Below are positions 5,589 through 55,680 of a DNA stretch of 64,000 nt, piece after piece. Origin of the DNA: a bacterium (GTDB taxonomy: Bacteria > Patescibacteriota > Minisyncoccia > Phycocordibacterales > UBA6899). How positions within the stretch are numbered: the first letter of the stretch is position 1; every line of letters starts with the position of its first letter. Both the position numbers and the translations under genes were made by a program. Under the pieces are notes generated by a model. The model saw nothing but the letters and a program-made list of their open reading frames with translations. It made no database searches and was not told the DNA's origin. Location of the stretch: NCBI GenBank assembly GCA_021851895.1, contig JAJZQJ010000001.1, positions 71,338 through 135,337 of the forward strand, read 5' to 3'.

Positions 5589-6049
5589 AATAATATTGCG
5601 TTTAGTTGAGCATGGCACAAGGTTTAAGGAAAGCGAGTGGATGAAATTCGAGGAGCGGGCAAAACTTCGAAGAAGATGTACTTGAAGTACATTGACTGAG
5701 AAGTTTGGGTGCCCGCGACAAAGAAGTTCGCCTCTCGCTTTTCTTAAATAAAAAAGAGCCAGATGCCATGTAATAATGTCGCGATATTATAGCACGAAAA
5801 TTTTTATTTTACAAGGCCAAAATGAATTTTTCACAATGCTATACAACACTTTGCCTCGACGATGATTTTTTTGTTTAGCTAATACATTGTATAGACCCAC
5901 TCAAGTGATACGTGCCCTTCGCGGTGATCAGTACCCCACCGCTCATTCACCGAAGAACTACTTACATAAAAAATATTGCTTTGTTAAGGGATTTTTTTAT
6001 TACCATACCTATTTACAAAATTATGAAATAGTGTTATAGTCGTCCTCAT

Positions 6050-8812: not shown

Positions 8813-8899
8813 TAAACAAGCACCACTCGGTGCTTGTTTTCTTTACAGCACATCGAATTTACACTAGGATAACGAAAGATGCTTCTTCTTGGAGGCATT

Positions 8900-9457
8900 A
8901 TGTCCGCGCTTCGCATCATCCATGGATCAGAAAGTCCCTCAAAAGTGAGTGCTGTGCGCAATGTGATCACCTCTTATTTCCCTTCCCCGCTCGATCTGAT
9001 ACATGTGCATATAGATTCGGGAGTCGGGCGACAACCGCGTTCACTCACAGAAACCGTGCGCGGTGCAAAGAAGCGTGCCTGTGACGGACTCATCGCTCTT
9101 GATGGCACGTTCGGCATCGGTATCGAGTCAGGAATCGTTGAACTCCCCGGATCGAGCAGTCTTGCCATGGAGCTTGCCGTCTGCGCAATCTTCAATGGTA
9201 AACACTATGCGATCGGACAATCCGCCGGATTTGAAATTCCTCGGTGTGTCATGGGAGATATCATTACTCATGGGCACACACTCACTGAAGGCTTTGCGAG
9301 CGTTGGTTTCATCAAAGGTGACCACGAGCACGGATCAAGCAATCTGCTCCGAGAGCTCACCAACGGACGAATGACCCGACAGATGCAAAACGAGCAAGCA
9401 CTCACCATGGCACTCATCCAGCTCGACCACTATCAGCTCTACGGCTATCGCGACTGA
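8900..9457 (+). CDS. Inosine/xanthosine triphosphatase, YjjX/DUF84 family (non-canonical NTP phosphatase)
   Basis: IHGSESPSKVSAVRNV...IDSGVGRQPRSLTETVRGAKKRA...GIGIESGIV aligns to the conserved blocks of E. coli YjjX. GGAGG lies 5 nt before the ATG at 8900 (the ORF-track start at 8879 is probably too early). Confidence 0.6.
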   Translation: MSALRIIHGSESPSKVSAVRNVITSYFPSPLDLIHVHIDSGVGRQPRSLTETVRGAKKRACDGLIALDGTFGIGIESGIVELPGSSSLAMELAVCAIFNGKHYAIGQSAGFEIPRCVMGDIITHGHTLTEGFASVGFIKGDHEHGSSNLLRELTNGRMTRQMQNEQALTMALIQLDHYQLYGYRD

Positions 9458-9670
9458 ATCAAACGCACCCATCGGGTGCGTTTTTCTTTTCTTTGCATTT
9501 GCATTTCCACCCACAAACACCCATGAAACACTGAGCATTTTTGTCGGCGGTTGCCTCGCTGGAGCCTGACGACGTACAGTGGTACGGCGAAGGCGAAGCG
9601 TGAGGCGACCCCCGTCAAAAAGACCAGTGCCGTACATGGACAGCACGTAATCAATAAATTGCGCAAATTA

Positions 9671-9694
9671 AAAACCCTAAGAAGGGTTTTTAAT
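9671..9694. terminator. Bidirectional rho-independent terminator (rpoD 3' end / convergent plus-strand transcripts)
   Basis: aaAAACCCTaagaAGGGTTTTtaa, overlapping the rpoD stop. Confidence 0.6.
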
Positions 9695-11060
9695 AATTGC
9701 GCAATTTATTGATGTTCTCGTGCTGCCTGATCTTCTCATGCGCTTTCGCCTCGATCTGCCTGATACGCTCACGTGTCACTCCAAACTCCTTACCCACTTC
9801 CTCAAGCGTATGCTGTACACCATCTTCAAGTCCATGACGCATCTCGAGGATCTTTCGCTCCTTTGGAGAGAGCTCCGCGAGTACCTCTTGGATTTGCTCC
9901 GAGAGAATGAGGCGCGAAACCTCTTGATCTGGAGAAAGTATACGTTCATCAGGTATGAATTCGCCGAGTGTTGACTTATCCTCATCATCACCGATCGGCT
10001 TTTCGAGTGAAACCGTATCTTGATCGATGTTCTGAATATTACGCACGCGCTCGACTTCGATGCCCATCTCCATGGCGATTTCCTCAGCCATTGGCTCACG
10101 GCCGAGATCCTGAGTCAAACGGCGGTGCACCTGCTTGTATTTTGCGATCGTCTCAACCATGTGTACCGGAATACGAATGGTACGCGATTGATCAGCGAGC
10201 GCACGGGTGATCGCCTGGCGAATCCACCACGTCGCGTAGGTGCTGAACTTGAATCCCTTTGACCAGTCAAATTTATCAACGGCTCGGAAGAGTCCGAGAT
10301 TACCCTCCTGAATGAGATCGAGCAAAGTAAGGTCTGGGGAACGACCGACATATTTCTTTGCGATCGAAACGACAAGACGGAGGTTTGCACGTGCAAGAAG
10401 TCCCATTGCCTCCTCATCGCCCGCAGCGATACGCTGCGCGAGCTCACGCTCATCTTTTGCAGTAAGCAATGGATACTGACCGATTTCGCGGAGATACATC
10501 TGTGTAGAATCTCCACCTGCACCCTTGCCAAGCTTTCGATTGATAAGCTCCTCATCGGTATGCACATCAAGGAGACCACCTGACTCTATGACATCAACAC
10601 CAAGGTTCGAAAGTTTCTCGTAGATATCATCAAGGAAATCGATATTGTTCTCTATGTCAGGATATGTGCGCAAAATCTCATCATACGTTACAAAGCCACG
10701 CTCCCTGCCGCGATGCACCAGCGACTGCAACTTATCCTCGAGGCCCTTTCGTGCGCGCTCGCCCGTCTTTGGTGGATTCGGTGCAAGTTTTACCTTTTCA
10801 AGCTTCGACGGCTTTGTGCTCGTCTTTGCAGTAGCCTTCTTTGCAGTGGCTTTCGACTGCACAACCTTCTTTGAGGCAGCATTCTTTGAAACAACCTTCT
10901 TGACCGCTGGCTTCTTTGCCGGTGCCTTCTTTATGACAGGCTTCTTCACCGCGACCTTTTTTGTCACGGGCTTCTTTACCACCACTTTCTTTGTGGTGAC
11001 CTTTTTCGCTGAAACAGTCTTTTTGACCGCAGCCTTAGTAGTCTTCTTTGTCGTCGGCAT
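9690..11060 (-). CDS. rpoD: RNA polymerase sigma factor RpoD (sigma-70) with lysine-rich N-terminal extension
   Basis: Regions 1.2-4 are recognisable: [23 protein letters not shown]; [40 protein letters not shown]; [20 protein letters not shown]. The first ~95 aa are KK(P/V/A) repeats. Confidence 0.95.
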
Positions 11061-11139: not shown

Positions 11140-12906
11140 CTACATGAGATGCGCACGTTGACGCATTCTATCTTCCACAGCGATTATTCTCGGTGCAAGA
11201 GCGCGATATTGTGCCATGTATTCTGAAGTATCCTCCTTTGCACTCTCCGCACGTGAAATCTCTCTGAAAAGTGATTCTTGTTTCTCTTTAAGCAATTCTC
11301 TTTCAACGCGATCAAGTAACTCTTCAGCAATTTCCTGCAATTTAGCGTCTTTACCATAACGACTTTCAGCGGTGATGAGCAAACGCGCTGCATCAGCCTC
11401 GCCCGGCTCGACGAAATCTATTTCGAGCTCTTTGTAGAGCTGCGCATGTCTTGCCCTTATTTCTTCATGAGCAAGCGTCGATTCTTTGTGAATCTCCTGC
11501 CACAAGAGCAAGCCGATAAGTTCATCACTCACGCGCACAAGCGTCGAGACCGCGTTCATAGATGGTGGACTCACTGGGGGTTCCACTTCGCGCTCCCGCT
11601 GCTCACTAAACGGTTCATTCTTACTGCGAAAGCGTTCGATATCCTTCCAAGCTGAATCTTCGGGTATCTCGAGCAAACGTGCGATCTCTGATATATATCG
11701 TGCACGCTTCATACTGCTCTGCATAATTGCTATGAGTGGGAAAATGTTTCGTTCCACGCGCTCCTGATTCTCATCGCGCGTCAATCGAAGCTTGCGAAGT
11801 GCATCAATGTAATAGAGTACGATATCCTTCGCATTCTCCAATACTGCGGGCCACTCTGCTTGATGCTCGAGTATGTAATCAGCCGGGTCCTTTCCTCCAG
11901 GCACCATAGCTGCACGCACGTCCATCTCTTCCCCGAGCGCAATAAGCGCACTACGGTATGACGCATTGATTCCTGCGGAGTCCGCATCGAGCAAGATGAT
12001 GACATGCTTGGTTAGCCTTTTAATGAGCTCAACCTGCTGCTTCGTCAGTGCTGTTCCTGATATTGCGATCGTATTCTCGCTTCCCGCTTGATGGGCCATG
12101 ATACAGTCCATCTGACCTTCAACGAGTATCGCAACATCAGCTTTTCGCATCGGCACTTTTGCGCGATCATACGCAAAGAGGACGCGAGATTTTTCATAGA
12201 GTTCACCCTCCGGAGAGTTGAGATACTTCGCCACGGGTGTACCATCGGGTGCCTTTTGGTCTCCCCAAACGCGGCCCGTGAATGCGATCACGCGACCCGA
12301 TGGATCCATGATCGGAAACATGATGCGACCGCGAAAAGTATCGTAATACCCGCGACCTTCGACTTTCTTGACCACACGAGAACGTTCTATTTCACTATCG
12401 GAGAATCCTTTTGATCGAAGCGCTTCATGGAGTGCACGCCACTCAAGTGGCGCAAAACCGATACGAAATTTTGCTATCGTCTCGTCAGTGAGACCTCGTC
12501 CATGAAGATACTCACGCACCTCGGGGTGCTCCACGAGATGCGCCTCGAAAAGTTTCGTCGACACTTCCATAAGTTCGATAAGGCGCTCTTTCGCTGATTT
12601 CTGCTGATCAAGTAGCGCTGAGCTTCGCTCAGGAAGCTGCACGCCCGCTCTTGCAGCGAGCAACTTCAGTGCCTCAGGAAAAGAAATGCCTTCGATCTCT
12701 TGTACGAATGTAAAGATATCACCACCCTTTGCGCAACCGAAACAATAAAATGCATCACGCGCAGGAGAAACATTAAATGATGGGCTGCGCTCCTTATGAA
12801 ACGGACAAAGCGCGCGGAAATTACTTCCTGCACGCTCCAACCTCACATATGTTCCAACTACATCGGCGATAGGTAGTCGTGCTTTTATCTGTGCGATATG
12901 GTCCAT
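11140..12906 (-). CDS. dnaG: DNA primase DnaG
   Basis: CHC2 zinc finger CPFHKERSPSFNVSPARDAFYCFGCAKGGDIFTFV and Toprim IILLDADSAG. Located upstream of rpoD, the classic MMS-operon order. Confidence 0.9.
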   Translation of the reverse strand: MDHIAQIKARLPIADVVGTYVRLERAGSNFRALCPFHKERSPSFNVSPARDAFYCFGCAKGGDIFTFVQEIEGISFPEALKLLAARAGVQLPERSSALLDQQKSAKERLIELMEVSTKLFEAHLVEHPEVREYLHGRGLTDETIAKFRIGFAPLEWRALHEALRSKGFSDSEIERSRVVKKVEGRGYYDTFRGRIMFPIMDPSGRVIAFTGRVWGDQKAPDGTPVAKYLNSPEGELYEKSRVLFAYDRAKVPMRKADVAILVEGQMDCIMAHQAGSENTIAISGTALTKQQVELIKRLTKHVIILLDADSAGINASYRSALIALGEEMDVRAAMVPGGKDPADYILEHQAEWPAVLENAKDIVLYYIDALRKLRLTRDENQERVERNIFPLIAIMQSSMKRARYISEIARLLEIPEDSAWKDIERFRSKNEPFSEQREREVEPPVSPPSMNAVSTLVRVSDELIGLLLWQEIHKESTLAHEEIRARHAQLYKELEIDFVEPGEADAARLLITAESRYGKDAKLQEIAEELLDRVERELLKEKQESLFREISRAESAKEDTSEYMAQYRALAPRIIAVEDRMRQRAHLM

Positions 12907-19979: not shown

Positions 19980-20593
19980 ATATAGAGTGTGGTATAGGAA
20001 TACAGTGATTAATAAGAGCTCGACGAATCAGCATAAGTAATCGGTAAGCAGTAATCAGTAATCAGGGCAAATGCACGAACAGTATTCAGCGCATCTAGCC
20101 TGATTACTGTTTACTGATTACTGTTCACTAACTACGAGAACATGACGAAAAAATACCTGAGAGCAAAAAGCCCCTCCAGGTCTCAGTTCAATACGTTCTT
20201 TGTTATGCTGAGTTCTTCAAAGCGTGGATTATACTCAACCAACCAACACCTCCAGCAAGTACTCATTCACGAGGATATGCAAGGCATTATAACGCCTCGT
20301 CCACAGGTTTGTCAAGCAAATATATTGACATTCTGGGGATAAACGCTAGGAAAACTTGTGGATAATGTGTAGTGAATGGCATAACACACTTATATGGCCT
20401 CATTACTACATATATTTATACTGCCCACAACAAAACCCGCAAGCTGTTGCGAGTTTTGTTAAGTTCTAGTTAAACTTTAGATTTTTGATGCAGGTTGCTT
20501 CGCTGGAGCACCCTGAACTCTAGCAAGCCGTATGTGCTATACGGTGAGCGAGTCGGGGTGTGAAGTGAGGCAAGATGCGCAAAAATATGAAGT

Positions 20594-22399
20594 TTAATCC
20601 ATATCGGAGCGGATCATCTTCACAAATACATCGGGAGGAATATGCACGTTTGCTGATTCCTGCATCTTCTTCTTTCCCTTCTTTTGTTTTTCGAGGAGTT
20701 TCATCTTTCGAGTGATATCACCACCATAAAGATACCCGGTGACATCCTTACGAAACGCAGAGAGTTCCTTCGAAGCAACGATACGCCCCATCGCACGTGC
20801 CTGTATCTTGATCTTGACCTGCTGTCGGGGAAGCACTTTATAGAGCTTCTCCACTGCCGCGTCAGCATCATCTTGCATGCGACGGCGAGAGACAACGCGA
20901 GCAAATGCAGGTACCGGATCCCCGCCGACAAGCAAGTCCATGCGAACAACATCCGCGTCGCGCATTCCTGCAATATCATAAGAAAGTGACGCGTAGCCTG
21001 ATGACACTGATTTCAGCCGATCGAAAAATCCTCTCATCAATTCACGTAACGGCATCACAAATTTTATCTGGAAACGATTGTCTCCAAATATGTCTGAGTC
21101 TCCAGTTTCAGCCTCGTGCTCGAATAAAAGCTGTGATACAGGACCAACATAATCAGGAGGCGTAATGATCGAACCATCGATCCACGGCTCACGTATCTTC
21201 TCAATATCCGCATCATCTGGAAAGAGTGCGGCAGAATAGACGATTAGCGGATCTTCCTTCTTGCGCAATTTCACCTCATAGGTGATCGACGGTGTTGTCA
21301 CGACCAAAGCGAGCTGGTGCTCACGACGAAGCCTCTCGGTAACGATTTCCAAGTGCAGCATGCCGAGACACCCACAACGGAATCCGCGTCCTAATGTCCC
21401 CGATGCCTCCTCCTCATAGGTAAGCGCGGAATCCGAGAGCTGAAGACGCTGTAGTGCTTGTCGTAATACATCGAGATCATCCTGGCTCTCAGGGAAAACA
21501 GACGCCCAGACAACAGGTCGCGGCTTCGCATAACCCGGCAACGCTGGTAATGGCTGTTTCGTGAGCGTGACCGTATCACCAACCCCCGCCACACCAGGAC
21601 GCTTGATACCTGTGACAATGTAGCCGATCTCACCTGCAAGTATTTCAGATGCGGGAGTTTGTGCAGGTAAAAAGTGCCCCACTTCGATACCGAAGAATTT
21701 CTCTCCTGCGGCAATGAACGATAATTCCGCACCCTTAGTGATCTTTCCATCCAAAACACGCACATAGAGTATGACTCCGCGATGATTCGAGTACGCGAAA
21801 TCAAAGATAAGCGCTCGCGCGCCAGGCCTTCCCTCGAACTCTTCCTCTGGGGACGGCACTCGATCGACAATAGCATCGAGTAACTCGGGAACACCTGCAC
21901 CGGTCTTACCAGACACCTTGAGTATTGAAGATGGGTCACAGTCGAGCAACTGCACAACCTCATCAACGACCTCAGGTATATCAGCGAGAGGAGAATCGAT
22001 CTTCGAAAGAACAGGTATGATCGTGAGCCCCTGCTCTTTTGCCATAGCAAGCACAGAGAGTGTCTGCGCTTGCACACCCTGCGTTGCATCAACAAGCAAA
22101 ATACAACCCTCGACGGCCTTTTGCGCGCGAGAGACCTCATAGGAAAAATCTATGTGTCCGGGAGTATCGATCAGATTAAGCACGTAATCCTCACCACCCT
22201 TTGTATAGTGCATGCGCACGGGGGTCATTTTTATGGTGATGCCGCGTTCACGCTCGAGATCCATTGAGTCGAGCACCTGAGCCTGCATCTCTCGTGCGCT
22301 GACGGTACGCGTGATCTCAAGCATGCGATCGGAAAGGGTCGATTTACCGTGATCGATATGTGCGATAATACTGAAATTGCGAATATGAGACTTCGACAT
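20594..22399 (-). CDS. lepA: Elongation factor 4 (LepA)
   Basis: IRNFSIIAHIDHGKSTLSDRMLE...LERERGITIK. Length and C-terminal domain are typical of LepA. The conserved N-terminus starts at the second Met (22399). Confidence 0.9.
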   Translation of the reverse strand: MSKSHIRNFSIIAHIDHGKSTLSDRMLEITRTVSAREMQAQVLDSMDLERERGITIKMTPVRMHYTKGGEDYVLNLIDTPGHIDFSYEVSRAQKAVEGCILLVDATQGVQAQTLSVLAMAKEQGLTIIPVLSKIDSPLADIPEVVDEVVQLLDCDPSSILKVSGKTGAGVPELLDAIVDRVPSPEEEFEGRPGARALIFDFAYSNHRGVILYVRVLDGKITKGAELSFIAAGEKFFGIEVGHFLPAQTPASEILAGEIGYIVTGIKRPGVAGVGDTVTLTKQPLPALPGYAKPRPVVWASVFPESQDDLDVLRQALQRLQLSDSALTYEEEASGTLGRGFRCGCLGMLHLEIVTERLRREHQLALVVTTPSITYEVKLRKKEDPLIVYSAALFPDDADIEKIREPWIDGSIITPPDYVGPVSQLLFEHEAETGDSDIFGDNRFQIKFVMPLRELMRGFFDRLKSVSSGYASLSYDIAGMRDADVVRMDLLVGGDPVPAFARVVSRRRMQDDADAAVEKLYKVLPRQQVKIKIQARAMGRIVASKELSAFRKDVTGYLYGGDITRKMKLLEKQKKGKKKMQESANVHIPPDVFVKMIRSDMD

Positions 22400-47793: not shown

Positions 47794-48309
47794 GTATGTT
47801 ATATTGATTGTTATTTTCCCAAAATTTCGATTTCAATGACTGAAGAGCACTAACGTATTATACCTGAGAGATAGTAAATATCACGAGCATGGCTCGTGAT
47901 ATTTGGAGATACGGGGAGAATCTCACGTCGCGATGCGGCGACACGGCTCACAAAGTATCTTGCTCCACGTATTCGCAAGATGCTAAGTGGCCGTCGTCAC
48001 GACTCGCGGCCTCGAAGACTCGGCATCGCTCCGTCTCGCTCAGGGGAAAATGCTCCGCATTTTCTTTCTCCCTTTGCGCCCCAAAGGGGCCCGCACGGCA
48101 CTGCTCCTCTATCTCCTTACAGGAGCTGTACACCTTTTGGATCTTTTGTTTCGAAGACTCACAAAAGTTCTCAAAAGGTCTTGCGCTCTCGCTCCCATAA
48201 GAATGGGACCCATGTGCGAGAGCTCACCCACGGTTCCTAACGCTTTCTTTGAAGACGAAGAAAGCTGTGCTCCTCCACGGGGAACCTCCCCGTTCCCCGA
48301 CCCCTTCGA

Positions 48310-48395
48310 CGTTCGAATCCCCGCGACTCCGCAAAAACAAAAAATGAACAAGCATTCTTGTTCATTTTTTGTTTTTGCGGAGTCGCGGGGATTCG
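48310..48395. repeat. Perfect ~42-bp-arm palindrome formed by an inverted copy of the tRNA-Ser 3' end plus trailer
   Basis: GTTCGAATCCCCGCGACTCCGCAAAAACAAAAAATGAACAAG cattc CTTGTTCATTTTTTGTTTTTGCGGAGTCGCGGGGATTCGAAC; the right arm is the 3' T-loop/acceptor of the tRNA gene itself. Confidence 0.8.
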
Positions 48396-48464
48396 AACCC
48401 CGGATGGCTGTTACACCATACTCACTTTCCAGGCGAGCGCACTAGACCACTATGCGACGACTCC
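48378..48464 (-). tRNA. tRNA-Ser (anticodon GGA), type II with long variable arm
   Basis: GGAGUCG-UC-GCAU-AGUGGUCUA-GUGC-G-CUCGC-CUGGAAA-GUGAG-UAUGGUGUAACAGCCAUC-CGGGG-UUCGAAU-CCCCG-CGACUCC-G; 87 nt, CCA not encoded. Confidence 0.9.
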
Positions 48465-55539: not shown

Positions 55540-55680
55540 TATCCGCAAAGCAAAAACTGCAGAATTTGGATGAAATTCACCTCGTTGGAGACAAGAGAAC
55601 TCGAAGGAGATGGGCTCGGCGCCCATTGACTGAGTCTCTTGTCGAAGCGAGGTGAAGTTCGCCAAATTATGCAGTTTTAT
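55540..55680. repeat. Large imperfect palindrome (~45-bp arms) between lemA and htpX
   Basis: aaactgcagaatttggatgaaattcacctcgttggagacaagagaactc ... gagtctcttgtcgaagcgaggtgaagttcgccaaattatgcagtttt. Confidence 0.6.

Follow-up and report, generated by a model that had tools for sequence, protein, structure and literature searches.

Rickettsia palindromic elements (RPEs) are palindromic repeats of ~105–150 bp that are often located in frame within genes (PMC10969869, PMC3184786). The bcr1 repeat is ~155 bp in length, is transcribed, shows compensatory changes, and has a non-conserved distribution between relatives (PMC3184786). Repeats of the ERIC/YPAL type are imperfect intergenic palindromes of 100–170 bp found near gene ends, for which both co-transcription and ORF fusion are possible (PMC3184786, PMC10969869). 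REPs are 20–40 bp long and carry a GTAG or CGTC tag (PMC3733652).

CPR bacteria have very small, streamlined genomes, and their non-coding DNA is little known. The 64-kb stretch of DNA analysed here (positions 1–64000; hereafter the window) contains four copies of a hairpin repeat (copies A–D), every one on the plus strand. Copy A, located between a yjjX-like gene and rpoD, is probably a resident copy of a 105–130-nt hairpin repeat family of the RPE/ERIC/bcr1 kind that is carried by one group of Parcubacteria (Patescibacteria). The initial annotation had proposed it as a candidate independent sRNA gene with one paralog. A conserved structured element is present on the plus strand, but it belongs to a dispersed repeat with four copies in 64 kb and at least 19 in 1.05 Mb of related contigs; apart from the copies in the window, covariance models located about 15 in related Parcubacteria contigs. 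With four copies, a dispersed distribution, and one copy in frame in a primase gene, it reads as a Rickettsia-style palindromic element and not as a lone sRNA gene. At approximately one hairpin copy per 16 kb, clustering at the ends of the core genes rpoD, rpoC, lepA, bipA, and dnaG, the family would be a Parcubacterial counterpart of the Rickettsia palindromic elements. The literature searched contained no description of a comparable repeat from Patescibacteria, and the family appears to be undescribed. For annotation purposes, these hairpins should be regarded as repeat copies and not as unique sRNA genes, and a covariance model is now available for masking or for a census of the family.

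The family resembles RPEs in consisting of dispersed palindromes of ~105–150 bp in a small reduced genome, both intergenic and in frame, with a 41-residue in-frame insert in DnaG and an over-representation of stop-free frames. Its host, however, belongs to the Parcubacteria and not to Rickettsia, and a sequence relationship is not expected. Only one of the ~19 copies is intragenic, compared with nearly half of the RPEs; the protein database yielded no conserved peptide encoded by the element; and the outer stem is copy-specific, with the core alone being conserved. The family shares with bcr1 the nature of a small dispersed repeat, a fold kept by compensatory changes, and a distribution that differs between relatives. 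However, bcr1 has 5-bp direct repeats on its flanks and its transcription is established, whereas no consistent target duplication was identified here. ERIC, YPAL, and MITE elements are likewise imperfect intergenic palindromes of 100–170 bp near gene ends, but MITEs have common terminal inverted repeats, target-site duplications, and a cognate transposase, none of which was found in the window and the rpoD neighbourhoods of relatives. The REPs of REP/BIME-RAYT systems are extragenic palindromes that are recognised as folded single strands and are abundant after stop codons; the present copies, in contrast, are about 105–131 nt in length, contain structured internal loops, and have no GTAG/CGTC tag at their aligned ends. 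Sibling sRNA families are also similar, in that a genome carries multiple structured paralogs that show covariation and have a single defined strand, but no promoters were found here, one copy resides in a coding sequence, the stems are copy-specific, and copies abut stop or start codons. In summary of these features, the family is a multi-copy palindrome within the ~100–170 bp range that occupies unrelated contexts, is present or absent between relatives, and is found in frame in a single case, as are repeats of the RPE/ERIC/bcr1 kind, and it has neither the terminal inverted repeats nor the target-site duplications of a strict MITE.

Copy A is a 105-nt rod-like hairpin at positions 9527–9631 on the plus strand (the pairing ends are approximate), and is thus narrower than the extent of 9491–9665 originally assigned to it. 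RNAfold folded the region 9525–9625 into one long hairpin (−45.9 kcal/mol, z = −4.62), and none of 200 shuffled sequences was equally stable. This agrees with the earlier description of a GC-rich structured element downstream of the yjjX-like gene, the quoted sequence of which was found at the position given. Its inner part (9549–9610), present in both the MFE and centroid structures, comprises an 11-bp stem (GGUUGCCUCGC at 9549–9559 and GUGAGGCGACC at 9600–9610), an internal loop (UGGA at 9560–9563 and GAAGC at 9595–9599), and an apical hairpin, CGUAC-AGUG-GUACG (9573–9586). Both the closing stem and the apical hairpin had been predicted in the initial annotation. The YUGGAG/YGAAG loop is common to copies A, B, and C and to the copies in the related loci L015 and L016. 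Copy A is a conserved structured element, and its fold is that of the plus strand.

The upstream gene (8879–9457, plus strand) encodes an NTPase_I-T/YjjX-like protein (Pfam PF01931, E = 2.1e-29). Its intrinsic terminator (9461–9493, plus strand), which had been noted before, was placed by a terminator scan at 9461–9483 followed by a T run; it has a 10-bp stem with 6 GC pairs and a T-rich tail and ends 33 nt 5′ of copy A. On the other side, the primary sigma factor gene rpoD (9690–11060, minus strand; Pfam Sigma70 regions 1.1–4) is convergent with copy A. A long palindrome was detected at the rpoD 3′ end by inverted-repeat search (9650–9713) and is kept in L015, L131, and L132. Its inner repeat is a perfect 12-bp inverted repeat, AAAAACCCT/AGGGTTTTT (9667–9678/9683–9694), and the right one of its outer 17-bp arms lies within the final rpoD codons. 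The inverted repeat had been interpreted as a bidirectional terminator at 9671–9694; the repeat itself exists, but a consensus terminator scan made no call at 9667–9694. The rpoD terminator is embedded in the longer palindrome ATCAATAAATTGCGCAA/TTGCGCAATTTATTGAT, which is also found at L015:3331–3400 and L131:3138–3199 and is kept in at least three relatives. Because its right arm corresponds to the last ~7 rpoD codons, an inverted copy of the rpoD 3′ end resides downstream of the gene. Between this palindrome and copy A, a terminator-like hairpin, GTGCTGTCCATGTACGGCAC followed by TGGTCTTTTT, is present on the minus strand (9627–9646), with a T run complementary to the A run that marks the foot of copy A. 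On either strand, U5 stands before the hairpin of the element and A5 after it. The hairpin is not an intrinsic terminator, having no U tract directly 3′ and receiving no call in the terminator scan.

The window, which derives from a genome of the Patescibacteria/Parcubacteria type, also contains short rpoB (1073 aa) and rpoC (1209 aa) genes, and its rpoD has a lysine-rich N-terminus. This N-terminal extension (RpoD residues 3–83; gene at 9690–11060, minus strand) shows a weak match, below the cut-off, to the histone H1-like HC2 family (PF07382). The closest RpoD proteins were found in metagenome bins named Patescibacteria, Lloydbacteria, Yonathbacteria, and Pacebacteria.

Copy B is located at 20471–20596 (plus strand; fold z = −7.76), beginning 9 nt past the lepA terminator hairpin, and its 3′ foot overlaps the lepA stop codon (20594–20596, minus strand). 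It contains the paralog reported near 20481–20580: the 17-mer GGTTGCYTCGCTGGAGC occurs exactly at both 9549 and 20493, against a chance expectation of 0.29 even allowing up to 3 mismatches. Copies A and B have in common the arrangement ATTTTTG..GGTTGCYTCGCTGGAGC..GTGAGGCRA..CAAAAA around a variable tip. Copy C (55553–55678, plus strand) is separated by 2 nt from the stop codon of a LemA-family gene on the minus strand and by 61 nt from the start of an M48 peptidase gene, and its nearest relative is the L016 copy at the rpoD site. Copy D (5624–5747, plus strand) lies upstream of two genes: bipA, to which it is antisense and whose start (5588, minus strand) is 35 nt away, and a methyltransferase gene at a distance of 302 nt. 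GC skew is negative across the whole window (1–64000), and the minus strand carries almost all of the long ORFs; the four plus-strand copies are antisense to the prevailing transcription and probably also to the direction of replication. Elsewhere in the window, an inverted repeat with 51-nt arms (92% complementary, 4-nt loop) was found at 48302–48407. Its right arm coincides with the T arm and acceptor at the 3′ end of tRNA-Ser(GGA) (48377–48464, minus strand), and an inverted copy of the tRNA-Ser 3′ half is therefore present just downstream of the gene.

Relatives were sampled via rpoD neighbourhoods, and the DNA downstream of rpoD was read for hairpins. Because all related loci were gathered through rpoD, they form a biased sample of genomic contexts. 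Homologous hairpins were first found in this DNA in L015, L016, L019, and L025, and a simple end-motif search gave further copies, including the third copy in the window. A covariance model (R1) was then built from 8 copies, with A, B, and D left out. A search of about 1.08 Mb of related loci with R1 identified copy D (72.4 bits, E = 8.8e-16), copy B (70 bits, E = 3.6e-15), and seven more non-seed copies, with matches in relatives that include L072, L019 (two more), L082, and L087; copy C, a member of the seed, scored 106.9 bits. A second model (R2), with A and L015 added to the seed, recovered all R1 copies plus L079:14150–14276. Copy A scored 48.9 bits (E = 3.8e-10) with R2, a match that is given by construction, and it escaped detection by R1, whose seed did not include it, even with filters off; copy A is thus a divergent family member. 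It is tied to the family by an exact 17-mer and 9-mer in common with B and by its resemblance to C (CCTCGYTGGAG/GAAGCG.GAGG), with identical architecture; its assignment draws on the fold z-score, the R2 match, the shared 17-mer, and its orthologs. Four copies are carried by the 64-kb window, three by the 21-kb locus L019, and two each by L025 and L079. The core loop sequences GAGGCG/CAACGA are conserved, and the core sequence is kept across genomes whose rpoD is only 64–77% identical.

An Rfam search, as suggested in the initial annotation, matched no family to the element. With Rfam 15, the whole window gave only tRNA-Ser at the gathering threshold, region 9300–9800 gave only terminator-like noise at E ≤ 10, and L015, L016, L019, and L025 (seven copies) gave nothing at the elements at E ≤ 1. 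SRP, 6S, tRNA-like, box C/D, and CsrA-binding RNAs (GGA/GA motifs) were rejected as candidates, with no Rfam match and with the motifs lying in stems. A pattern scan of GTDB genomes using both conserved halves gave 11 matches, all of them chance matches in high-GC genomes with unrelated folds. A strict gapless 5′-GGA/GA-3′ loop descriptor was too narrow, recovering only B and C, and the control gave 3 matches. A phage origin was also rejected: a 17-mer scan of IMG/VR gave 34 loci, approximately the chance number, and none was matched by the model. The 17-mer look-alike in L046 is not a family element.

The family members share a rod layout consisting of a copy-specific outer stem, a conserved core with wobbles and tandem G·A pairs, and a GUAC-type tip. 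In an alignment of 16 distinct copies, which was fitted to the model so that the figures are somewhat inflated, 92.4% of cells were paired (31–45% in slid controls), 30 of 35 pairs were changed on both sides, and the covariation score was 0.71, compared with 0.21 in shuffles, none of 500 of which reached it. Independent MAFFT/RNAalifold alignments gave the same picture. The fold of one strand has thus been maintained through many compensatory changes. Two wobbles are nearly fixed, U·G in 13 of 15 copies and G·U in 13 of 16, with C-G, U-A, G-C, and A-U as variants. The ratio of G·U to A·C was 46:7 overall and 21:7 outside the two fixed wobble columns (p = 0.013), and that of G·A to A·G mismatches was 15:1. 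These biases and wobbles indicate that the fold is that of the strand as oriented here, i.e. the plus strand in the window. The internal loops of the core are rich in G·A, with UUC-GA.../...GA-GAA near the base and G-GA-G...U-GA-C below the tip, and a further G·A-rich loop, YU-GGA-G/Y-GA-AG, is found in A, B, C, and the L016 copy. Such loops suit RNA but also form in single-stranded DNA, and they are therefore compatible with either. The outer stems are near-perfect, of up to 20 bp, although copy-specific.

The boundaries of the unit were delineated by the copies of L090 and L072, which are 74% identical, including an outer stem with two compensated changes. Their similarity is confined to the hairpin, beginning and ending precisely at its foot. 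The element and dnaG are all that the two loci have in common within ±3 kb; one copy is located upstream of dnaG and the other downstream of rpoD, i.e. at different ends of the dnaG-rpoD operon, and the four-fold sites of the two rpoD genes are only 28% identical. In L014, whose rpoD is 91% identical to that of the window, no copy is present in the lepA-rpoB spacer (the B site) or in the bipA-methyltransferase spacer (the D site). At the position of copy A, L014 has a longer, rearranged, and differently folded sequence (11400–11560, minus strand), which keeps only the 5′ GGATGCCTTGCTGGTGC and a 3′ end of the CCAAAAAACCAG type and is preceded by an AT-rich promoter-like stretch (cTTGACAaatataaaat...). 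The inner stem of A, B, and C (CYUCGYUGGAG/GAAGYGAGG) is absent from the copies of other genomes, as would be expected from amplification within one genome.

The only intragenic case among the ~19 copies is L025:8443–8567, which is in frame within the essential primase gene dnaG and adds exactly 41 residues with no stop. The corresponding DnaG loop is V-EGKG-YYD in all close relatives and in the window, and at least 50 homologs are without the 41-residue insert. Because a single native codon lies between the flanking K and Y, both hairpin arms came with the insert, which rules out an origin of the outer stem by inverted duplication of the target flank; the sharing of the outer stem by L090 and L072 also speaks against such an origin. 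Stop-free frames account for about a third of the 102 frames of the family, versus about 14% expected. A search of the protein database with the DnaG insert peptide gave no candidate for a widespread encoded peptide. No terminal inverted repeat common to the copies was found, the outer stems differing even within the window; target-site duplications flanking the hairpins were not consistent (TA...TA in only 3 of 15); and no transposase, reverse transcriptase, or other partner was found in the rpoD neighbourhoods and the window. Split elements flanking a cargo gene or ORF were also considered, and no isolated halves were found. The family behaves as a dispersed, at least formerly mobile, unit.

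Copy A is, at the same time, a long-term resident. Its orthologs are located between the NTPase gene and rpoD in L015, L131, and L132 (the last cut by a contig end). Copy A is 68–70% identical to the L015 and L131 orthologs, whereas the rpoD four-fold sites are 41–42% identical, which is near saturation; between L015 and L131, the element is 88% identical and the rpoD four-fold sites 53%. The stem differences between L015 and L131 are largely compensated (CGCUC/GAGCG to CGUUC/GAACG and GUUU/AAAC to GCUU/AAGC), and homologs in related genomes, which the initial annotation proposed to look for, do exist and show compensatory changes. Descent of copy A at the NTPase/rpoD site has been vertical, and its sequence changes at a rate far below that of synonymous sites. 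Related copies at the rpoD 3′ end were also found in L016, L019, L025, L082, and L087, and the site is occupied in at least 8 genomes, so that its occupation has been either long-standing or repeated; it may reflect one ancient insertion rather than repeated mobility. The persistence of copy A at one site under purifying selection, across genomes with saturated synonymous divergence, is no less compatible with a host function, such as that of an RNA gene, than with a selfish element.

No other observation argues as strongly as this conservation for a host function, and thereby for the view that each copy is an independent sRNA gene, with its own promoter and a structured RNA of ~100–130 nt that would act in trans, e.g. 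by protein binding via the G·A-rich loops. We consider this view unlikely, even though the strand-specific fold, the conserved wobbles, the strong covariation, and the conserved core loop sequences would all suit it, as would the conservation of A well above the synonymous rate and its location between two terminators. A 5′ spacer that is kept and a 3′ foot that is flush with the next coding sequence also give the copies the look of units with an upstream promoter. However, no sigma-70-like promoter site precedes copy A (the promoters of these bacteria are poorly known), and no motif is common to seventeen 5′ flanks. Copy B, starting 9 nt past a terminator, has no room for a promoter, and the start of the L090/L072 similarity exactly at the hairpin foot indicates that no promoter travels with the unit. 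Furthermore, one copy resides within the dnaG reading frame, two copies end 3–6 nt before start codons, and four copies in 64 kb of a genome of roughly the 1-Mb class would be unusual for sRNA genes. There is also no Rfam match.

If copy A and its relatives are palindromic repeats of the RPE/ERIC/bcr1 kind, the element would be a small, non-autonomous, dispersed or mobile palindrome, and the feature recognised, both for its spread and for its resident role, would be the folded single strand (RNA where transcription reads through it, or ssDNA) and not a terminal sequence. Resident copies may function in cis, serving as structural hairpin modules where genes begin or end, usually between the stop codon and the terminator in antisense orientation and sometimes 3–6 nt before a start codon; they would not be promoter-driven, trans-acting base-pairing sRNAs. 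For copy A, a cis role in the flanking mRNAs is not obvious, because it lies between terminators, outside both transcripts. A stronger form of this reading, which we put forward only tentatively and consider doubtful, is that the family represents a new, structure-defined kind of mobile element of ultra-small bacteria that is recognised and moved purely via its folded strand, is free in its terminal sequence, and has been domesticated as a polar module at coding-sequence boundaries. If true, the domesticated module would regulate core genes, among them rpoD, rpoC, lepA, bipA, and dnaG, at the level of antisense transcription, RNA processing, or leaderless-type initiation.

The copies are polar with respect to coding sequences. 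In 11 of 17 intergenic copies, a coding-sequence boundary is no more than 8 nt away from the 3′ foot, compared with 1 of 16 for the 5′ foot (Fisher p = 0.0008), and the 5′ side nearly always keeps a spacer of at least 26 nt. Nine copies touch or overlap a stop codon (four at rpoD, two at rpoC, and one each at lepA, a LemA-family gene, and an RNase H-like gene), and the gene is on the opposite strand in all nine (binomial p = 0.004, or about 0.06 if, as is possible, the nine represent only five independent insertions). At these copies, a canonical, often bidirectional, terminator lies 9–45 nt beyond the 5′ foot, placing the element in the 3′ UTR of the gene in antisense orientation. Two copies end just before start codons in sense orientation, 3 nt before bipA (L079) and 6 nt before dnaG (L019). 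Selection against the well-folded strand in mRNA 3′ ends, polar insertion, or the need for an upstream promoter could each cause this polarity, which offers a testable handle on insertion or function.

The location of nine copies at stop codons, ahead of canonical terminators, together with long near-perfect outer stems (up to 20 bp) that would be RNase III substrates, is what would be expected of a cis-acting 3′-end device of the neighbouring genes, i.e. a terminator, a 3′-end protective hairpin, or an RNase III processing site. Such a device is nevertheless improbable. The well-paired strand is antisense to the abutted gene in 9 of 9 cases, so that the mRNA carries the version with C·A and U·C mismatches; a U tract follows the hairpin on neither strand; separate terminators adjoin the copies, with copy A lying beyond those of both neighbours; and other copies are located in 5′ regions or within coding sequence.

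Template switching at quasi-palindromes can keep arms complementary (quasi-palindrome mutagenesis). A functionless DNA palindrome, the arms of which would be complementary through replication template switching and not through selection on the fold, would account for near-perfect copy-specific outer stems, expected from arm-to-arm correction without selection, and for the other inverted gene 3′-end copies in the same genomes (tRNA-Ser and the rpoD 3′ end), but it is highly improbable given that the conservation of A and other copies far exceeds that of synonymous sites, that the core is conserved between genomes with rpoD only 64–77% identical, and that U·G, G·U, and tandem G·A, which correction should remove, persist in nearly all copies.

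Several arrangements at individual gene boundaries may be added to the description of this dispersed palindromic repeat. In L019 (7537–7926), the spacer between rpoC and dnaG is taken up by two oppositely oriented copies with 143 nt between them, of which one runs into the rpoC stop codon and the other stops 6 nt short of the dnaG start. The bipA start is adjoined by copies in two genomes, in sense orientation in L079 (18723–18848) and in antisense orientation in the window (5624–5747); the L079 copy is so close to the start, at 3 nt upstream, that a Shine-Dalgarno sequence could not fit outside the hairpin. In L036 (7797–7933), the DnaG loop that holds the L025 insert carries an in-frame insertion of another palindromic repeat (TGTCATTCCCGCGAAGGCGGGAATCC..., 38-nt arms), which adds 49 residues (..VIPAKAGIQ..LDPRLRGNDN..); the loop appears to tolerate the insertion of palindromes.
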